From NCBI GenBank assembly GCA_964404195.1, contig CAYOJC010000010.1, forward strand, positions 6,514 to 70,513: 64,000 bases of DNA, written 5' to 3'. Shown here piece by piece: positions 6,498 through 62,660 of this stretch (its first letter is position 1; every line of letters starts with the position of its first letter). A model generated the notes under the pieces. It saw only the letters and a program-made list of their open reading frames with translations. It had not been told where the DNA came from and made no database searches. Position numbers and translations under genes: made by a program. The stretch comes from an uncultured Syntrophobacteraceae bacterium. Its GTDB lineage: Bacteria > Desulfobacterota > Binatia > UBA9968.

Positions 6498-6526
6498 GGC
6501 GGCGGGGTCAACGACTTGTCACTCGG

Positions 6527-11553: not shown

Positions 11554-11616
11554 CAAAGGGGTCACAAAGGACAAAGGACAAAGGAAAGGACAAAGGACAA
11601 GACAACAAAGGGGTCA
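11554..11616 (+). repeat. CAAAGGA tandem stutter between two CAAAGGGGTCA copies
   Basis: caaaggggtca-caaagga-caaagga-caaagga-aagga-caaagga-caaga-caa-caaaggggtca. Confidence 0.9.
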
Positions 11617-12642
11617 AGTCCGCTCTTAGCCCTTGACATGCCGAGCAAGATTCACTAGATGCTCTTTATGGCTCGTCCACTACGCATTGAATACCCCGGG
11701 GCATACTACCATGTCATGAACCGAGGTCTTTCCCGCAGGGCCATCTTCTTGGAGGAAAAGGGCCGAGAGCGGTTTTTGGACTTACTTTCCGACATTGCGC
11801 AACTCTGGAAGATAGAGATCTACGCCTACTGTTTGATGGATAACCACTACCACCTCCTCTTTCAGACCCCTAAGGGGGACTCGCCCGCGCGATGCGACAC
11901 CTCGATGGGATCTACACCCAGAGGTTCAACCGAGCCCATCACCGAGACGGTCCCCTATTCCGGGGCCGCTACGAGGCGATCCTGATCGATGCCGAGGAGT
12001 ACTTTTTGTCTGTGGTCCGTTACATCCATCAGAACCCCATAGAGGCAGGAGTCGTATCGGACATAGATCGCTACCGCTGGAGCAGCCAACAGGGGTATCT
12101 GTCAAAGCGCGAGCGTCCTGTATGGCTCAATCCCACTCGGTTCTATCTCGGTTCGGTGGCGTTAGGGAATACCGGGAGTTTATGCACTCTGAGGTTGAAA
12201 AGGAGGTCGTCGATTTTTACAAAGGACCGTATCGGAGGTCGATCTTAGGGGATAAGAGATTTGTGGAGTGGGTCAAGGAGAGACTTGGTGACGGAGCCAG
12301 AGTGGAGGAGGAAAAGCCTGAGTCTCGCAGGGTATTTAAGTTAGGGATTGAGCAGATTGCCCGGGTAACAGCTAAGGTACGGTAAGCCCTTGGAGGAGCT
12401 AAGGAGAAAGCGGCGAGGTGAGGAGAACGAGGCGCGGTCGATGGCGATGTATCTGTGTCGGACCTTGGGAGGGCACAGGCATAGCGAGATCGGTAAGGTG
12501 TTGGGGTTAGAGAAGACCTCATCGGTGAGTTCAGCCTGTTTGAGGATGAAGGCGAGAGTTGGGGTGGAGAGGAAGATAGCCCGGAGAGCGGGAAGGATTG
12601 AAGAAGAACTACAAAAGAGCCAAGGGCGGACTTGACCCCTTT
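11607..12642 (+). mobile_element. Y1 (HUH, RAYT-like) transposase element bounded by 24-bp inverted repeats
   Basis: left aaaggggtcaagtccgctcttagc (11607-11630) versus reverse complement of 12619-12642 aaaggggtcaagtccgcccttggc, 22/24 identical. Confidence 0.8.
11668..12635 (+). pseudogene. Y1 transposase with C-terminal DnaA-like HTH, three frameshifts
   Basis: MARPLRIEYPGAYYHVMNRG, NHYHL (HUH), YIHQNP, YRWSS, ARSMAMYL...SEIG..LG; split over four ORFs (breaks near 11875, 12130, 12385). Confidence 0.9.
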
Positions 12643-22128: not shown

Positions 22129-23108
22129 TTAGCGGACGTCGAAAATTTGCTGATTAGGAGGCGACCATTTCCTTCAGGTTGGGCTCGATGGATGCCGGAC
22201 TCACGAAAACGAAATCCTTCTTGTACAGCTCCTGATTGCGCGGGATTTGTTTCACGCCCTTGCGGATCGTCATGCGCGGAATCTGCTGCGCCATCAGCGA
22301 CTGCGCTTCCTCCGACAAAATCCAGTCGACGAATAGGATCGCCGCGTGGGGATGCGACGCGCGGCGCATGAGGCTGACCACGTTCGGTTCCGCCGGATAA
22401 GGATCGAAGAGCCGATAGTCGATCGGCGCGCCTTTTTCTTTGTACTCGACCACGCGCCGGCCGCGCGCGGCGATGGCGATTGACGACTCGCCGGCCAGCG
22501 CAAGCTGCAGACGGATGATGCTGCTGGAGCCCGGCATGTGCAACTGCTGGCGCGCGAGCGCTTTCATATATTCGAGCGCTTTGGCCTTGCCCATCCTGTC
22601 CAACATGACCGTGAACCACGCGTACTCGTCGGTCCCAAGATTCATCTTACCCTTCCACTTGGGATGGAGCAGATCCTGATAACTCCGCGGCGCCTCGTCC
22701 TGGGGCACCAACTTGGTGTTGAACGCAACGACGATGGGCGTGACCTCATACGACGACCAGAAGCCCTGGCCATCGTAGGAGCCGGCGGGAAATGCTTTGA
22801 GCTCTGGCGACAAGTACGGAGCCGAGTAACCTTTCTCTCTTAACTCCCAAATCTCCACCGGCGCCGACGCCACCACGTCCACGACAATGCGGCCGGCCCT
22901 CGCTTCCGTATCGATCTTGGTAAAGATGCTGGACTGAGTCAACCGCGTGGCTTTGACCTTGATGAAAGGGAAAGCTTTTTCGAAAGCGCCGAGAATTTTG
23001 GGAAAATCGGCGAGGCCCATCGAAGTATACCAGACGAACTCTCCCTCTTTGCGCGCGCCGTCTTCCAGGACGGTTTTTCTTTGAGCCGGAGGCAGGCTGC
23101 GGATGGTC
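22129..23108 (-). pseudogene. extracellular solute-binding protein (Fe3+/thiamine-type), 5'-truncated and apparently frameshifted at the 3' end
   Basis: GARKEG.FVWYTS, DLLHPKWKGK, HPHAAILFVDW; no signal peptide (5' end abuts GGGGTCA repeats); removing one A near 22154 restores ...SYQQIFDVR*. Confidence 0.75.
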
Positions 23109-23135
23109 TTGGGGTCAGGTCTTGGGGTCAGACCC
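23105..23135. repeat. tandem GGTCTTGGGGTCA x2 + GACCC (transposon-end-like)
   Basis: 13-mer direct repeat sharing the GGGGTCA core with the Y1 element ends. Confidence 0.7.
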
Positions 23136-23174
23136 TTCAATCTAAACAATCTTATCTCTCGTCCCTCGACGAAC

Positions 23175-23260
23175 AAAGAACCCGGCTAGGGAAAGCCAGT
23201 CCGGGCTGTGATACGGATTCAAAGATGTGACCGGATCGGGGACCCAGCCGAAGTTAGTTT
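23175..23260 (-). ncRNA. candidate small structured RNA/attenuator, copy 1
   Basis: promoter, core identical to copy 2 at 50/51 nt, terminator AGCCCGGACUGG-CUUUCC-CUAGCCGGGUU-CUUU. Confidence 0.6.
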
Positions 23261-23265
23261 CGCGT

Positions 23266-23294
23266 AAAATAGGGCAAGTTGTCTAAGAAGGCAA
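23266..23294 (-). promoter_or_regulatory. sigma70-type promoter TTGCCT-N17-TATTTT (copy 1)
   Basis: hexamers and spacing identical to copy 2 while the spacer sequence differs. Confidence 0.7.
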
Positions 23295-23434
23295 CAGGCA
23301 AAAATACTGGGCGAAGGTAATCCAATATTTTAACCTCAATTGAACTGAGCGACGCTTCAATCGAATCCTGTTTAGGCTATTCTCCTCCCTGGAATAGACG
23401 CCTTTGAAAGAAAGAAGTTGCGCCGTAACACCCA

Positions 23435-23644
23435 TCACATTGTCACCACTCGATCCTTTAGCTTCCCTTTAGCCGCTCGTTCCACTAGCTTGTCGATTCT
23501 TCTCTGAGCCTGATATCCGATCTGCTCATGCCCGCATTCCTGGCAGATGAGGCAGGGGACGTTTCGGATCTCTAAAAGATCGGTTTGGACCGATGTCCGA
23601 CCTAAGTATGTCCTCGATCCGCATTGCTGACATTTGCCAGGCAT
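23435..23644 (-). CDS. YgiT/MqsA-type zinc finger protein
   Basis: CQQCG...IRNVPCLICQECG; 69 aa. Confidence 0.85.
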   Translation of the reverse strand: MPGKCQQCGSRTYLGRTSVQTDLLEIRNVPCLICQECGHEQIGYQAQRRIDKLVERAAKGKLKDRVVTM

Positions 23645-23781
23645 GGTTTCAACCCAGGTCCTTCTTATTCATAACCCTTAATCCCTTTAACCCTTCATCC
23701 CCCCAAATATGCCTGGCAGACCTGATCGTTAGTGGCGAGGGCCATAGCCCCTGGCCCATCGGCTGAAAAAGTGAAAAAGAA

Positions 23782-23805
23782 AAAGGGGGCAAGTCTGCTC
23801 TTGGC
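23782..23805 (+). repeat. solo copy of the Y1 element terminal repeat
   Basis: aaagggggcaagtctgctcttggc, 21/24 identical to 11607-11630. Confidence 0.75.
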
Positions 23806-23844
23806 TCAACTTGATAATCTTCTAAGTCTAAAACCCATGAATAC

Positions 23845-23928
23845 AAAAGCCCGGCTGGGAGCCAGTCCGGGCTGATGTAAAACGAACCGAAGATGTGACC
23901 GGATCGGGGACCCAGCCGAAGTCAGTTT
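23845..23928 (-). ncRNA. candidate small structured RNA/attenuator, copy 2
   Basis: core AAACUGACUUCGGCUGGGUCCCCGAUCCGGUCACAUCUU, terminator AGCCCGGACUGG-CUC-CCAGCCGGGCU-UUU. Confidence 0.6.
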
Positions 23929-23933
23929 CGCGT

Positions 23934-23962
23934 AAAATAGAATAAACATATCCAATAGGCAA
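23934..23962 (-). promoter_or_regulatory. sigma70-type promoter TTGCCT-N17-TATTTT (copy 2)
   Basis: same hexamers and 17-bp spacing as copy 1. Confidence 0.7.
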
Positions 23963-24038
23963 GAGGCGAAGTCTAATAACCGAGAGGCGCGAGGCAACAG
24001 GCAACAAGAATCGTGGGTTGTGTTCGTGGATCGTAATT

Positions 24039-24150
24039 TCAAAGCTTCAAAGCTCTAACCGCATTGGAGCCGAGGATTTGGCTCCGCTCTTTGTCGAAAG
24101 GGAGGATCAACTCCTTTACTTTGCGCACCGGTTCGAAGTCGCCCATCGAC
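24039..24150 (-). pseudogene. C-terminal remnant of an amidohydrolase-family protein
   Basis: MGDFEPVRKVKEL....ERSQILGSNAVRALKL* resembles the amidohydrolase_2 tail (ILGGNA.R.L.L). Confidence 0.55.
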
Positions 24151-24214
24151 AAAAGAGAAAGCCGTGACTCGTGTTCGTGAATCGTGATCGTCGGGCAGGA
24201 TTCAATGGAAGGAA

Positions 24215-24616
24215 TCAATCCCAAACGGTGCGAATCAAGCCCGACTTCTGAATCTTTTCGTCAGCCGTCACAAGCGGTAATCCCTCCACTCTAGCCTGTG
24301 CCACAATCATTCGGTCATATGGATCTCTGATTCCAACCAGCGCTGAGGCCTCGAGCAGGAGATGAGCGTCGTTCTCTCCTAATTCGAAGTTCTCCGCCTG
24401 CATTAACGAAAGAAGCAGCTCCCTGAAGGGCAGACGAAGACGGATTTTACCCGCCTCGGTGAGCAACATGATCTCCTCCAGCACGGTAAAAGGAATCAGG
24501 AGAGTATCCAGTCCCCGCTCCACCCGATCAAAAATAGTTTTTGCTCTGCGGCCCAGCTTCCGATGTTGGCCGGTCAGGTGATAGACGAGGGCGTGGGTAT
24601 CCGTGGCGAGAATCAT
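24215..24616 (-). CDS. vapC: type II TA toxin, PIN domain (VapC)
   Basis: DTHAL, EI, RDPYDRMIVAQARVEGLPLVTAD. Confidence 0.93.
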   Translation of the reverse strand: MILATDTHALVYHLTGQHRKLGRRAKTIFDRVERGLDTLLIPFTVLEEIMLLTEAGKIRLRLPFRELLLSLMQAENFELGENDAHLLLEASALVGIRDPYDRMIVAQARVEGLPLVTADEKIQKSGLIRTVWD

Positions 24617-24903
24617 TCAAAGAGAGACTCGATCCTTGATTTTCGCAGCTCTTCGATGGCCCGGTCGATGTCTCCTCCCGCGGCCGCCGTCCCCTTGAGC
24701 TTGAGAATCCGTTTTTCCTTGCGGCTTCGCAGATGCCTGCCCGCGTTGGACATCGCCTTGTACTTCTCGACTCCCACAATCACCGCAACCGGCTTCTGCC
24801 TCTTGGCAATGATGTAGGTCTGCCCTCGCTCGCTCACCTGGTCCACAAGCTCGCTCAAATTGGCCCGCGCCTCGACGAACGAAAGAACCTTTTCCTTTGC
24901 CAT
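24613..24903 (-). CDS. type II TA antitoxin, Phd/YefM family
   Basis: EARANLSELVDQV...IIAKRQKPVAVIV; ATGA overlap with the PIN gene. Confidence 0.93.
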   Translation of the reverse strand: MAKEKVLSFVEARANLSELVDQVSERGQTYIIAKRQKPVAVIVGVEKYKAMSNAGRHLRSRKEKRILKLKGTAAAGGDIDRAIEELRKSRIESLFE

Positions 24904-25054
24904 GATCCTCTCCCTTTCTCGGATGTACACTCTATATGTACACCAATACCGGAGGCTGTCAATGGGGAATTAAAAGGGATAAAGGATGAAATGGAATAAA
25001 AGTCGTGGTTCGTACTCGTGGCTCGTGATCGTGACAGTCCAAAGTACTCGGAGA

Positions 25055-26170
25055 TTAACCGACGCTGACCCATTTCTCCTGATCCACTGATTTCAGCACC
25101 GCGTCCACGACTCTCTGCGCCTCCAGCCCCTCGCGAAAACTTGGAACGGCTTCTGCGCCCGTCGTTATCGCCTGAGCGAACCTGCGCGTCAGGTTGGAGA
25201 ATAAAAACTCGCCGGGGACGCGCTTCGGGTCGGCGAGGTTCAAGCCCCGAATGAATTTTTCCGGAATAGGCAAAGATTCGAAATGCGCGTTCGCGCCGCG
25301 CACGCCGAAAAGCTTGCCCAGGACCCAGTCCGGGTTCTTGCGGTCGATGTCGACTTGCAGCGCTCCTTCGCTGCCGAAGATCCGAATACTCTGAAAAATA
25401 TTGCCGCGCGCGACGCCGCTGACGTGTAGGTTTGCCTGAACTCCTCCGCTAAGCTCCGCGATAAACATGCACGAGTCTTCCACGGTCACGGCGCCCTTTC
25501 CCGATCCGTCGGGAAGGCGCCGCTCCTTGTTGAAGATCGTCGCTTGGCCGGAGACTCTACGGAAGTCTCCCGCCAGCCAGCGGACGAGATCGATCAGATG
25601 AACGCCGGTGTCGCCCAAGACTCCGAAGCCGGCGGTTTCCTTTTTATGGCGCCAGCCGAGAGGCGTCTCCGGCGCCAATCTTCCTTCCACAAGCCAGGCG
25701 GCGTCCACATGAAAGACGCGCTCGCCCACGTAACCTTCTTCCAAAAGCTCTTTCATGCGCCGGACCGCGGGAATGAAGCGGAAATTGAAAGCCGTCATGT
25801 GGACCCGGTTGGCGTCGCGCGCGCCGGCCAACATGGCCTCCGCTTCCGTGAGGTTCAGCGCTAACGGTTTCTCGCAAAGGACGTGAAGCCCGCGGGAAAA
25901 CGCTTCCAGCGCTATGGGGCAATGAAGATTGGGCGGCGTGGCGATGCTCACCGCGTCGAGCTGTTTCATTTGGAGCAACTCCCGGTAGTCGGTGAAGACG
26001 TTCGGAATGCTGAATTCGCCGGCGATTTTTTCCGCCTCGGACCGCCTCCTCTGGCAAAACGCCGCGACCTCTACGTTGCCGGACACCCGATAGGCCAGAA
26101 TGTGGTTCCGTCCATAGCCACCGCCGATGACGCCGACGCGGAGTTTTTTATTGGTGGTTTGATCAGCCAT
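25055..26170 (-). CDS. Gfo/Idh/MocA family oxidoreductase
   Basis: VGVIGGG, IATPPNLH, HVLCEKP, GVLGDTGVHLID. Confidence 0.95.
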   Translation of the reverse strand: MADQTTNKKLRVGVIGGGYGRNHILAYRVSGNVEVAAFCQRRRSEAEKIAGEFSIPNVFTDYRELLQMKQLDAVSIATPPNLHCPIALEAFSRGLHVLCEKPLALNLTEAEAMLAGARDANRVHMTAFNFRFIPAVRRMKELLEEGYVGERVFHVDAAWLVEGRLAPETPLGWRHKKETAGFGVLGDTGVHLIDLVRWLAGDFRRVSGQATIFNKERRLPDGSGKGAVTVEDSCMFIAELSGGVQANLHVSGVARGNIFQSIRIFGSEGALQVDIDRKNPDWVLGKLFGVRGANAHFESLPIPEKFIRGLNLADPKRVPGEFLFSNLTRRFAQAITTGAEAVPSFREGLEAQRVVDAVLKSVDQEKWVSVG

Positions 26171-50071: not shown

Positions 50072-50215
50072 GCGAAGACGGGTGTCCATTGCTGACAGCC
50101 GGGCTGCCCTGTAACACAGGGGAAACGCCGCTACCGCTGCTTCCTTCCGGACCTGACGGGGTTTGCGGGACCGCCTTGCACAGGACCCGGCTATCAGCAA
50201 TCGACATCCGTTCGT
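50072..50215 (-). ncRNA. ffs: signal recognition particle RNA
   Basis: helix 8 GTCAGGTCCGGAAGGAAGCAGC inside a long hairpin; canonical position upstream of dnaX. Confidence 0.95.
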
Positions 50216-61047: not shown

Positions 61048-61139
61048 TGGCGGAGAGGGGGGGATTCGAACCCCCGAGTCGGGGTTAGCCGACTACACGA
61101 TTTCCAGTCGTGCACCTTCAACCGCTCGGTCACCTCTCC
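61048..61139 (-). tRNA. tRNA-Ser(GGA)
   Basis: GGAGAGG acceptor, anticodon loop CT-GGA-AA, long variable arm, GTTCGAATC, encoded CCA. Confidence 0.97.
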
Positions 61140-61296
61140 GGCTTTGAACATTAATAACACAGCCTAACATTGGAAGGAAGTTTTTACCCGGGCACTCCAA
61201 CAGTCGCCGGTCTTGCCGGAGCCGCGGCGCGGCTGGAATTTTCCTCTTGGAAGCCGACGGAATCGGCGCTACAATTTTTGCTGGGAGGACCACGAT

Positions 61297-61638
61297 ATGA
61301 TGCTCATCATCCACTGGTTCCTAAGCGCGCTAAGCCTTTTAATCGTCGCTCACCTCGTGCCGGGAATCGAGGTTCGCGGATTCGGCTCGGCGCTGATCGC
61401 AGCTGTAATCATCGGACTGGTCAATGCGACGCTGGGATTCATTCTGAAAATTCTGACGCTGCCGCTGACAATCGTCACCTTCGGGTTATTTCTGTTCGTG
61501 ATCAACGCCGTCATGCTGATGCTCGCGGCCGCGTTGGTGCCGGGTTTCGCCGTAAACGGATTCGGCGCCGCTTTGCTGGGCGCCATCGTGCTGAGCCTGG
61601 TAAGCTTTGTGCTGCGCGCGCTGATCTTCAGCCTGTAA
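61297..61638 (+). CDS. phage-holin-family (YvlD-like) 4-TM membrane protein
   Basis: GLVNA....L.ILTLPL.IVTFGLF.FVINA; RBS GGAGG. Confidence 0.9.
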   Translation: MMLIIHWFLSALSLLIVAHLVPGIEVRGFGSALIAAVIIGLVNATLGFILKILTLPLTIVTFGLFLFVINAVMLMLAAALVPGFAVNGFGAALLGAIVLSLVSFVLRALIFSL

Positions 61639-61674
61639 CGGCCCGGCGGTAAATTTCCGAAGAGTGCAAAATTT

Positions 61675-61766
61675 TGGCGGAGAGGGAGGGATTCGAACCC
61701 CCGTTACCCTTCCGGGTAAACTTGATTTCGAGTCAAGCGCCTTCAACCGGGCTCGGCCACCTCTCC
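61675..61766 (-). tRNA. tRNA-Ser(CGA)
   Basis: anticodon loop CT-CGA-AA, long variable arm, encoded CCA. Confidence 0.97.
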
Positions 61767-62264
61767 GCTCGTTCGACCCCCACGTTTTTCTTCTCGGATG
61801 CGGCTGAAGAATTCACTTAAAATGCGGCTGCACTCGTTCTCCATGACGCCGCGCGTCACAGGCAAAGTGTGATTCAGCCGGGAATCGTCGCAGAGGCGAT
61901 ACAGAGATTCCACGGCGCCGGCTTTGGGATCTAGACAGCCGAAGATCAATCGCGAAATGCGCGCCTGCAAGATCGCGCCGACGCACATGAGGCACGGCTC
62001 GAGCGTCACATAGAGAGAGCATTCTTCCAGCCGCCAGCTTTTCAGATGCGACGCCGCAGCTTGCAGCGCCAACACCTCCGCGTGCGCCATGGGATTTTGC
62101 AACTCTTCACGCCGGTTGTGAGCCCGCGCGATCACTTCGCCGTCGTAAACCACGACGGCGCCGACCGGAATCTCTCCGGCATCGGCCGCCTCACCCGCCT
62201 CACGGAGAGCCATCTCCATATAAAAGCGATCGCGATCGTCATCGTTCACTGTAAATTTGTCCAT
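61743..62264 (-). CDS. tadA: tRNA adenosine(34) deaminase
   Basis: EIPVGAV, AHAE, TLEPCLMC, RLNH; the stop lies inside tRNA-Ser(CGA). Confidence 0.96.
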   Translation of the reverse strand: MDKFTVNDDDRDRFYMEMALREAGEAADAGEIPVGAVVVYDGEVIARAHNRREELQNPMAHAEVLALQAAASHLKSWRLEECSLYVTLEPCLMCVGAILQARISRLIFGCLDPKAGAVESLYRLCDDSRLNHTLPVTRGVMENECSRILSEFFSRIREEKRGGRTSGEVAEPG

Positions 62265-62353
62265 GAGATTTTTCGACCATAACACAAAACCGGCGCCAAT
62301 GAAATTGACGGGCGTTTGAGCATGAGCGACGCCAGAGACCAAGACCTTGAGAG

Positions 62354-62442
62354 AGATTCTTCGCTACGCTCAGAATGACATTCAAGAGGCCCGTCATCCT
62401 GAACCCTTCGATTAGACTCAGGGCAGGCTCCGTGAAGGATCT
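62354..62442. repeat. REP-like inverted pair (GATTCTTCGCT..GCTCAGAATGAC / GTCATCCTGA..GAAGGATCT)
   Basis: two related ~27-bp units in opposite orientation, the second carrying an internal insertion. Confidence 0.65.
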
Positions 62443-62508
62443 ACCCAATGCGAGACCCGCCGAACCTTGACTCTCCGCTATGATTCTTTTAATTTGAGTA
62501 CTTGCAAT

Positions 62509-62584
62509 TGAGGAGTCGGCTAATTGGTAAGCCACCTGACTCTGGATCAGGCGATTGTAGGTTCGAGTCCTACCTCCTCAGCCA
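62509..62584 (+). tRNA. tRNA-Gln(CTG)
   Basis: TGAGGAG acceptor, anticodon loop CT-CTG-GA, GTTCGAGTC, CCA. Confidence 0.97.
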
Positions 62585-62585
62585 T

Positions 62586-62660
62586 GGTCCCATCGTCTAG
62601 CGGTTAGGACACCGGCCTCTCACGTCGGTAACACGGGTTCGATTCCCGTTGGGACCACCA
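62586..62660 (+). tRNA. tRNA-Glu(CTC)
   Basis: GGTCCCA acceptor, anticodon loop CT-CTC-AC, GTTCGATTC, CCA; 1 nt after tRNA-Gln. Confidence 0.97.

Follow-up and report, generated by a model that had tools for sequence, protein, structure and literature searches.

A lineage-restricted, multicopy promoter-to-terminator RNA unit of uncultured Binatia and its candidate role as a portable attenuator

Introduction

Terminator-containing 5′ leaders, such as attenuators and riboswitch platforms, combine a promoter, a structured leader and an intrinsic terminator with a nearby ribosome site and start codon, and the leader is conserved across orthologous genes. Intrinsically terminated small RNAs (sRNAs) can also form multicopy families, for example LhrC of Listeria and NsiR1 and Yfr2 of cyanobacteria, in which many near-identical units, some of them in tandem clusters, each carry their own promoter and terminator. 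Here we describe an RNA unit that shares features with both. It is found twice on the minus strand of a 64,000-nt stretch of DNA from an uncultured bacterium of the Binatia (positions 6,514 to 70,513 of contig CAYOJC010000010.1, assembly GCA_964404195.1), and is repeated elsewhere in the same genome and in related ones. The whole stretch is referred to as the window, and coordinates given without a contig are positions in it.

The unit is like terminator-containing 5′ leaders in each of the respects named above, and it has the layout of an attenuator, in that a promoter comes first and an intrinsic terminator separates the start of transcription from a co-directional open reading frame (ORF). 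It differs from them in lacking a leader peptide, a recognisable aptamer, a supported antiterminator and an Rfam family, and in that the same leader stands before dozens of unrelated genes in one genome. With the multicopy sRNA families it shares the many near-identical units, the own promoter and terminator and the occasional clustering, whereas most copies of the present unit abut a co-directional coding region and no target complementarity was found for it.

Two further systems are relevant to the way in which the unit is dispersed. Highly similar promoter regions upstream of non-homologous genes were described as putative mobile promoters by Nijveen, Matus-Garcia and van Passel in 2012 (PMC3575422), who also put forward that regulatory RNA motifs could travel on them. 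Like those promoters, as far as they are characterised there, the unit places a near-identical promoter before ORF6N, DUF378, TctC, solute-binding protein (SBP), DndB, NERD-kinase, GAF, NT5C and other genes; unlike them, it is a defined block that includes a structured RNA and a terminator, with up to 30 copies per genome in one bacterial family. The other system consists of repetitive extragenic palindromic (REP) sequences and the REP-associated tyrosine transposases (RAYTs), whose arrangement is described in PMC3116915 and PMC3337134. A motif flanking some units resembles that arrangement, as outlined there, in being inverted around Y1 transposase genes and dispersed about 60 times. The RNA unit itself is unlike it, having no such ends and not being located near full-length Y1 genes. 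A literature search returned nothing on Binatia non-coding RNA, Binatota riboswitches or DUF378 riboswitches.

Results and discussion

Two copies of the unit in the window

Inspection of the window confirmed two copies of an uncatalogued RNA unit running from promoter to terminator, and everything that a first-pass annotation, made from the sequence of the window by itself, had described was present on the minus strand. Copy 2 (23844–23962, minus strand), recognised by its sequence, its fold and a covariance-model match, begins with a promoter made of a −35 box TTGCCT (23962–23957), a 17-nt spacer and a −10 box TATTTT (23939–23934), all on the minus strand, and its RNA is predicted to start near 23928. 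This is followed by a hairpin, P1, in which 23917–23909 pairs with 23905–23897, a linker of the type ‘CGUUUUACAUC’ and a terminator in which 23872–23862 pairs with 23858–23849 directly ahead of TTTT (UUUU) at 23848–23845. Copy 1 (23172–23294, minus strand), recognised by sequence and covariance-model match, is organised in the same way, with a −35 box TTGCCT (23294–23289), a 17-nt spacer, a −10 box TATTTT (23271–23266), P1 (23249–23241 pairing with 23237–23229), a linker of the type ‘CCGUAUCAC’ and a terminator (23206–23196 pairing with 23189–23180) followed by TTCTTTGTT, the T-rich tract reaching 23172. The covariance-model scores were 88.4 bits for copy 2 (23844–23929) and 98 bits for copy 1 (23175–23261).

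The claim of a 51-nt block with 50 of 51 identical positions, repeated at a distance of 668 bp, was reproduced in both figures (23222–23272 against 23890–23940, start to start). Within this conserved core, P1 is a 9-bp hairpin of GGCUGGGUC with GAUCCGGUC, and three of its pairs are G·U. The sequences of the two promoter spacers are unrelated, as the annotation had pointed out, and across the family the hexamers and their spacing likewise persist while the spacers diverge. The linkers of the two copies are also unlike each other, and the GC-rich hairpin with a T-tract that was said to follow them was located in both copies. The fold of copy 2 was better than that of all 200 shuffled sequences (z −4.98; 0/200 equally good), and that of copy 1 only weakly better (z −1.49; 17/200).

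In agreement with the view that the unit is not a known riboswitch, a search of 22900–24300 against Rfam 15 gave no match, neither at the gathering score nor at E≤10. The only Rfam matches across the whole window were a signal recognition particle (SRP) RNA at 50094–50192 (minus strand) and four tRNAs at 61051–62657, all of them ordinary. No start codon with a ribosome site was found inside the window units, and the P1 loop, which varies in sequence among copies, is 3, 4 or 6 nt long. These lengths differ by non-multiples of three and so indicate that the unit is not coding, as had been noted at first pass. The GACY-type motif reported downstream of both copies was seen as GACTTGCCCCC (23795–23785) behind copy 2, and as GGTCTGACCCC (23134–23124) and GACCTGACCCC (23121–23111) behind copy 1.

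Distribution among related genomes

A combination of nhmmer and a covariance model (R1; 88 positions, 18 pairs) revealed about 14–16 copies of the unit in this genome. A search for homologues bore on whether the two window copies are only a local duplication, the outcome that the first-pass annotation had named as fatal to its proposal. That outcome is contradicted by matches in 60 of 90 genomes of the family, belonging to 21 of 23 genera and with 1–30 copies per genome, roughly 320 matches in all, together with the modest covariation presented below. The unit is a lineage-restricted RNA family, not a local duplication. Matches were seen in 21 of 41 genomes sampled among relatives, and in 5 of 151 in a class-wide sample, this genome included. 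When this genome is set aside, the latter matches came from 3 of 8 genomes of the family and 1 of 2 of its sister family, and none from 17 other families; since the distribution rests on genome samples, this means ‘not found in those searched’ and not ‘absent’. Public contigs carrying the core are titled Candidatus Binatia or ‘Deltaproteobacteria bacterium’ metagenome-assembled genomes.

Copies often occur in clusters of the same orientation, 600–3000 bp apart. Identity among copies is 0.714 within and 0.680 between genomes, and the small difference argues against recent bursts; a recent mobile burst is thus not indicated. Three copies in three genomes (G000:C130:1449–1494, L156 and L150) have an extra CCTGCC...GGCAGG hairpin at the same place, in the region of the P1 3′ arm.

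Three of the genomes used are unpublished (G016, G022 and G187). They contribute rows to alignments A1–A5 and two to three genomes to the 41-genome, ORF6N and family tallies. G016 is the source of the four-copy cluster L044, which has a TTGACG-type promoter subfamily, of copies in L016, L037, L048 and L052, of the U-A compensatory example in L052, of the DndB, SIR2-like, AAA_16, PIN and aldo-keto reductase neighbours and one TctC neighbour, and of integrase fragments. L031 and the unit-flanked ORF6N locus L128 rest on G022, and L158, with one U-A compensatory example, on G187. The family-wide distribution, the DUF378 leaders described below, the promoter and terminator statistics in outline and all window results are independent of these three genomes.

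Promoter and terminator across copies

A TTGACA-N16–18-TATAAT promoter matched in at least 8 of 12 positions was found at the right place in 57 of 87 distinct copies, as compared with 13 of 213 control windows, and 72 of the 87 had TTG at −35. Diverged subfamilies use other hexamers in the same geometry and with unrelated spacers, either TTGACC-N18-TACAAT or a −35 box TTGACG that is followed after 16–18 nt by an AT-rich box resembling a −10. The terminator was present with at least 7 of its 9 stem pairs in 67 of 88 distinct copies, and 59 of those had at least five T within the next 9 nt. Copies are homologous from the −35 region or from heptad repeats (see below) up to the U-tract or a REP motif.

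RNA structure and covariation

In a model-fitted alignment of 114 distinct sequences, 90.3% of the cells could pair, as opposed to 19–49% when the partners were slid. Double changes were seen in 11 of the 18 pairs (25 cells), a result reached by 0–1 of 500 shuffles, and with 88 distinct sequences in 9 of 18 pairs, reached by 1–5 of 500 shuffles; alignments fitted in this way are biased in favour of the model, and the sequences are related to one another. We regard this as modest covariation support for the predicted pairing. Each of the three G·U pairs of P1 is retained by most of the 114 sequences (GU in 99, UG in 83 and GU in 86). Because G·U pairs are conserved, the P1 hairpin is restricted to the strand of the promoter and terminator, and such strand specificity argues for an RNA and not for a site in double-stranded DNA.

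Downstream genes and the DUF378 leader

A crude ORF call on 88 copies placed a co-directional ORF first downstream of the unit in 50 cases and a convergent one in 26, while 12 copies were left out for short flanks; several of the ‘convergent’ ORFs were spurious. When the count was limited to first downstream ORFs that scored above the curated Pfam cut-off (n = 45, by hand), 37 were co-directional and 8 convergent. For 20 of the 37 co-directional ORFs, the start lies no more than 35 nt beyond the model match, which leaves no room for another promoter; a GGAG-type ribosome site usually precedes these starts. The downstream genes encode DUF378 (7 cases), ORF6N (5–6), TctC (3), SBP (3), DUF7948 (2) and DUF7718 (2) proteins, and also MazE, DUF4258, DndB, NERD-kinase, SIR2-like, GAF, CHASE2, TPR, NT5C, alcohol dehydrogenase, transhydrogenase and other proteins.

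The conservation of the unit in front of orthologous DUF378 genes is the strongest single argument that it functions as a leader. These orthologues have the unit as leader in six species of this genus and in G020 of another genus, and G013 is without it. The alignment of these leaders shows conservation from the −35 and −10 boxes through P1 and the linker to the terminator and ribosome site, apart from the promoter spacer and P1 loop, which are free to vary. In five of these genomes the DUF378 leader is the sole copy of the unit. No DUF378 gene was found by tblastn in the genome under study. A second shared case is the SBP gene of G006 and G008, which has a common leader with the same private terminator variant.

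The unit was located directly upstream of ORF6N genes at 6 of 20 loci, and five of those six also have a unit downstream. All eight genomes with at least five unit matches in the 41-genome sample have ORF6N matches, and ORF6N is multi-copy in genomes where the unit is multi-copy. The association of the two may reflect a shared accessory gene pool. At the unit-flanked loci L112, L113, L127, L128 and L131 (in G019, G017 and the unpublished G022), the genes with an ORF6N domain code for about 186–199 aa, and some contain in-frame stops.

Proposed role of the unit

On a slight balance of probability, we read the unit as a portable sigma-70-type promoter with a terminator-containing leader (an attenuator) that would also yield an RNA of about 88 nt. 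This reading builds on the observed sequence anatomy and distribution, the conservation of promoter and terminator, the sense-strand-specific pairing, and the position and orientation of the genes. The leader would open with a single-stranded tail of about 12 nt and go on to the 9-bp P1, whose stem includes three G·U pairs and whose loop varies; a conserved 25–30-nt linker would then lead into a GC-rich intrinsic terminator. Transcription from the unit's own promoter would mostly stop at the terminator, releasing an RNA of about 85–90 nt, and a co-directional gene, usually 3–180 nt further on, would be expressed only by read-through; a gene reached in this manner would make the unit a portable promoter plus attenuator. 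In the family the unit stands before many different genes, among them those for DUF378, periplasmic binding proteins, ORF6N, toxin-antitoxin pairs and defence-like functions, and in the window one copy is ahead of a zinc-ribbon gene and the other ahead of a truncated SBP gene. We infer that the unit gives rise to a transcript, that its terminator works in part or under regulation, and that the near-invariant sequence of stem and linker is read by some factor.

Among the functions offered in the first-pass annotation, an attenuator fits best, with 37 co-directional against 8 convergent neighbours and the DUF378 leader in seven species, and it is the switch built into that proposal which is not supported. 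The annotation had seen mutually exclusive terminator and antiterminator folds in the complementarity of the core CGGCUGGG to the terminator 3′ arm CC(C/U)AGCCG. The complementarity is real (duplex −17 to −19 kcal/mol), but this helix could form only once the 3′ arm has been made, at which point the adjacent 5′ arm competes, and it would leave a GC helix directly before the U-tract and so would not act as an antiterminator. The pairing shows no covariation and is lost in the DUF378 leader of G006. With four complementary segments numbered 5′ to 3′, the pairings 1:4 and 2:3 are alternatives that form in 87% of cells, with covariation no better than in shuffles, and 1:4 would still place a helix ahead of the U-tract. 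Pairing 2:3, between the P1 3′ arm and GGACUGG (6 bp, −9.2 kcal/mol, loop of about 28 nt), is the sole candidate that holds the terminator 5′ arm. The near-invariant sequences of the stems suggest either alternative pairing or recognition by a factor.

A number of observations weigh against the unit being a leader of this kind. With 8 of 45 Pfam-supported neighbours in convergent orientation, some copies cannot be leaders, and the counts of gene positions take in orthologous loci, which are not independent. The downstream genes have no obvious common function, so that no signal can be proposed, and no convincing antiterminator was found among the alternative pairings of the unit. About one quarter of the copies are without terminator or U-tract. 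The stems are conserved mainly as sequence, and covariation was significant only on model-fitted alignments: in a structure-blind MAFFT alignment of 61 copies it was not above shuffles, and RNAalifold on a MAFFT alignment of whole units predicted no pairs. One metatranscriptome contained about 5% of the sampled words, and at 85% likeness gave three contigs with a depth of 2–3, which show no ends and may derive from DNA. One covers 24182–24361 in vapC with one mismatch, another covers 23253–23300 (part of the copy 1 promoter) and runs into unlike sequence, and the third, covering 23862–23905, corresponds to the unit of a relative and extends beyond the U-tract of that unit. The contigs neither bound nor clearly cover the RNA, and are no evidence either way.

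A more far-reaching version of the attenuator, which we consider rather unlikely, would have a single antiterminator protein, RNA or ligand read the hairpin and linker of all copies and so co-regulate up to 30 operons per genome. Such a mobile attenuator would bring newly acquired toxin-antitoxin, defence, ORF6N and transporter genes into one RNA-based regulon, having begun as the leader of a DUF378 membrane-protein gene.

Alternative explanations

A free-standing, trans-acting multicopy sRNA family, in which the RNA of about 88 nt would pair with targets via its 5′ tail and the nearby genes would be incidental, could account for the own promoter and strong terminator of the unit and for the 8 convergent neighbours among 45. 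In the classic layout of base-pairing sRNAs a single-stranded 5′ end leads to a hairpin, which is followed by a U-rich linker and then a terminator, and the unit matches this layout. The 5′ tail AACUAACUUC is also highly conserved in the main subfamily, but not in the other subfamilies, in which it is the P1 3′ arm, the linker and the terminator that are kept. Sites complementary to the 14-nt tail with up to two mismatches numbered 20 outside the units, as compared with 3–61 for five shuffled words, and so showed no enrichment. Incidental neighbours would moreover be hard to reconcile with 37 of 45 being co-directional and 20 starting within 35 nt, or with the several genomes in which the DUF378 leader is the single copy. 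We hold a purely trans-acting sRNA to be unlikely; a dual role in cis and trans is possible. Another option named by the first-pass annotation, an sRNA linked to toxin-antitoxin genes, stood only in part, as the link to such genes is partial. A small-molecule riboswitch would require P1 and the linker to form an aptamer whose ligand chooses between termination and read-through. A conserved, promoter-proximal element that has a terminator behind it and coding regions immediately after would suit this, as would the lack of an Rfam family and near-invariant stems that could reflect alternative pairing. Set against these are the small size of the candidate aptamer, only a 9-bp hairpin with variable loop and a linker, with its conserved bases in stems and not in loops or junctions, the alternative helices without covariation, and downstream genes of no common pathway (toxin-antitoxin, ORF6N, kinase, DndB, binding proteins, DUF378 and transhydrogenase); a riboswitch is the explanation to which we assign least probability.

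The likeness to a promoter and terminator could also be incidental if the unit acted at the DNA level, as an integron attC-type recombination site or cassette boundary, a miniature inverted-repeat transposable element (MITE), or a REP/REPIN-type repeat. In favour of this are the same-orientation clusters, with units 600–3000 bp apart and single small genes between them, and the ORF6N genes that have units on both sides at five loci. The window copies lie in an accessory insert that is not in relatives, REP-type motifs adjoin 8 unit copies, and integron integrases score over the cut-off in G019 and the unpublished G016. Nevertheless, attC sites failed on three counts: no RYYYAAC/GTTRRRY core sites were seen at unit ends in either orientation (judged by eye and not with a dedicated attC model), the best integron-integrase match in this genome, with its 15 or so units, scored 104 bits against a cut-off of 265, and the intact G019 integrase has neither repeats nor units within about 10 kb, with no model match on either integrase contig. 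A MITE is not indicated, as no terminal inverted repeats bound the unit. The G·U pairs make the hairpin strand-specific, and copies resemble each other hardly more within genomes than between them, both of which speak against a DNA repeat. The same holds for the lack of any unit within 350 nt of the five full-length Y1 transposase genes, which also leaves without support the remaining proposal of the first-pass annotation, an RNA associated with the Y1 element; the motif behind that proposal belongs to a separate repeat (see below). Overall a DNA-level repeat appears very improbable. Separately, we record that integron-type integrases over the NCBIfam cut-off occur in two relatives (G019:C137:2470–3414 and C162:52795–53637), with fragments in the unpublished G016.

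The accessory insert in the window

Both window copies are part of an insert of about 1.95 kb (about 23111–25054). In G003, G005 and G010 an intact SBP gene, signal peptide included, comes directly after the oxidoreductase gene corresponding to window positions 25055–26170. The insert replaces the 5′ end of the SBP gene in the window and is not found in these three genomes. G006 has an unrelated insert at the same intergenic site. Being occupied by another insert there and empty in the other three genomes, the site between the oxidoreductase and SBP genes is an insertion hotspot.

The insert consists, in order, of a Phd/VapC pair, an amidohydrolase C-terminal remnant, copy 2, a REP-ended piece of about 60 nt, a zinc-ribbon ORF, copy 1 and two REP-type motifs. 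The pair, upstream of copy 2 and with its own promoter, spans 24215–24930 on the minus strand and encodes a PhdYefM antitoxin (24613–24930) and a PIN/VapC toxin (24215–24616), both identified by Pfam. The amidohydrolase-like remnant (24039–24150, minus strand), ending in ILGSNAVRALKL, was identified by eye between two CACGA arrays. The zinc-ribbon ORF of 69 aa (23435–23644, minus strand), taken from the ORF list, has weak, below-cut-off Pfam matches to Zn_Ribbon_YjdM and YokU. It sits between the two units and is the gene after copy 2, its start being about 200 nt downstream. Directly downstream of copy 1 is the SBP gene (22154–23176, minus strand; Pfam SBP_bac_6/8/1), which has lost its signal-peptide end, as judged against the orthologues in G003, G005, G006 and G010; homology to the intact orthologues begins at about 23110. 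The two REP-type motifs (23111–23134, minus strand) mark the junction of the insert with this 5′-truncated gene. Joints in DNA runs from 23277–23301 to 25004–25016, corresponding to a form without the toxin-antitoxin pair, copy 2 and zinc-ribbon stretch, were of low likeness and maybe from other loci or organisms, and were not used.

REP-type motif and heptad arrays

Elsewhere in the window, an element of about 1.03 kb (11610–12639, plus strand) with inverted GGGGTCAAGTC...GACTTGACCCC ends contains a truncated Y1 transposase frame (11701–11889, 108 aa), and a second copy of this element is found on contig C63. This element is the source of the transposon-end motif of the first-pass annotation. 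Eleven matches to Y1 transposase genes were found in the genome, of which five are full length (281–391 aa). Inverted (G)TCTGACCCC / GACTTGACCCC flanks three of these five on both sides (C81, C99 and C155), as well as the two 1.03-kb elements; for the Y1 genes on C32 and C140 only the downstream copy of the motif was seen. By a relaxed pattern the motif occurs 60 times in the genome, and only 8 of these are within 150 nt downstream of a unit. The GACTTGACCCC motif is a separate REP-type repeat of Y1 (RAYT-like) transposases, which is a neighbour of some units and not part of the RNA.

Outside the RNA model, the terminator of copy 2 is followed by an accessory piece of about 60 nt (23785–23844, minus strand) that ends in GACTTGCCCCC. 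Such pieces of about 60–65 nt are found at six places in the genome (contigs C38, C75, C130 and C154 among them); at one of these the unit core is missing, and at another the piece and the terminator hairpin are duplicated in tandem. The piece starts with a possible mini-ORF of 7–10 codons, and its last 22–24 nt resemble the ends of the Y1 element.

A GCCTNNN heptad array is located directly upstream of copy 2 (23982–24002, minus strand). Seven of 14 units have such an array at the promoter or up to 110 nt upstream of it, and about half of these arrays run into the −35 TTGCCT, that of copy 1 included. The 5-Mb genome has 119 GCCTNNN arrays of at least three heptads, where fewer than one would be expected by chance; they are intergenic, often past gene ends or in head-to-head pairs, and usually consist of four heptads flanked by a T-rich stretch. 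Three arrays of CACGANN heptads, about 34 nt long, separate the modules of the insert from one another (24007–24040, 24158–24191 and 24999–25032), and such arrays occur 15 times in the genome. CTCAANA heptads occur five times, twice upstream of units.

Implications

For annotation, the unit accounts for many of the breaks in Binatia assemblies and of the ‘orphan’ repeats between genes, and it adds a candidate to the short list of leaders without a known sensor. If the proposed role is correct, it would represent a new RNA family restricted to an uncultured lineage of soil and sediment, and a clear natural example of a promoter, a regulatory leader and a terminator being reused as one block before unrelated genes. 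It would also offer a system for studying how a cis-regulatory RNA multiplies within genomes, and how horizontally acquired genes, such as those for toxin-antitoxin, defence and transport functions, join host control.

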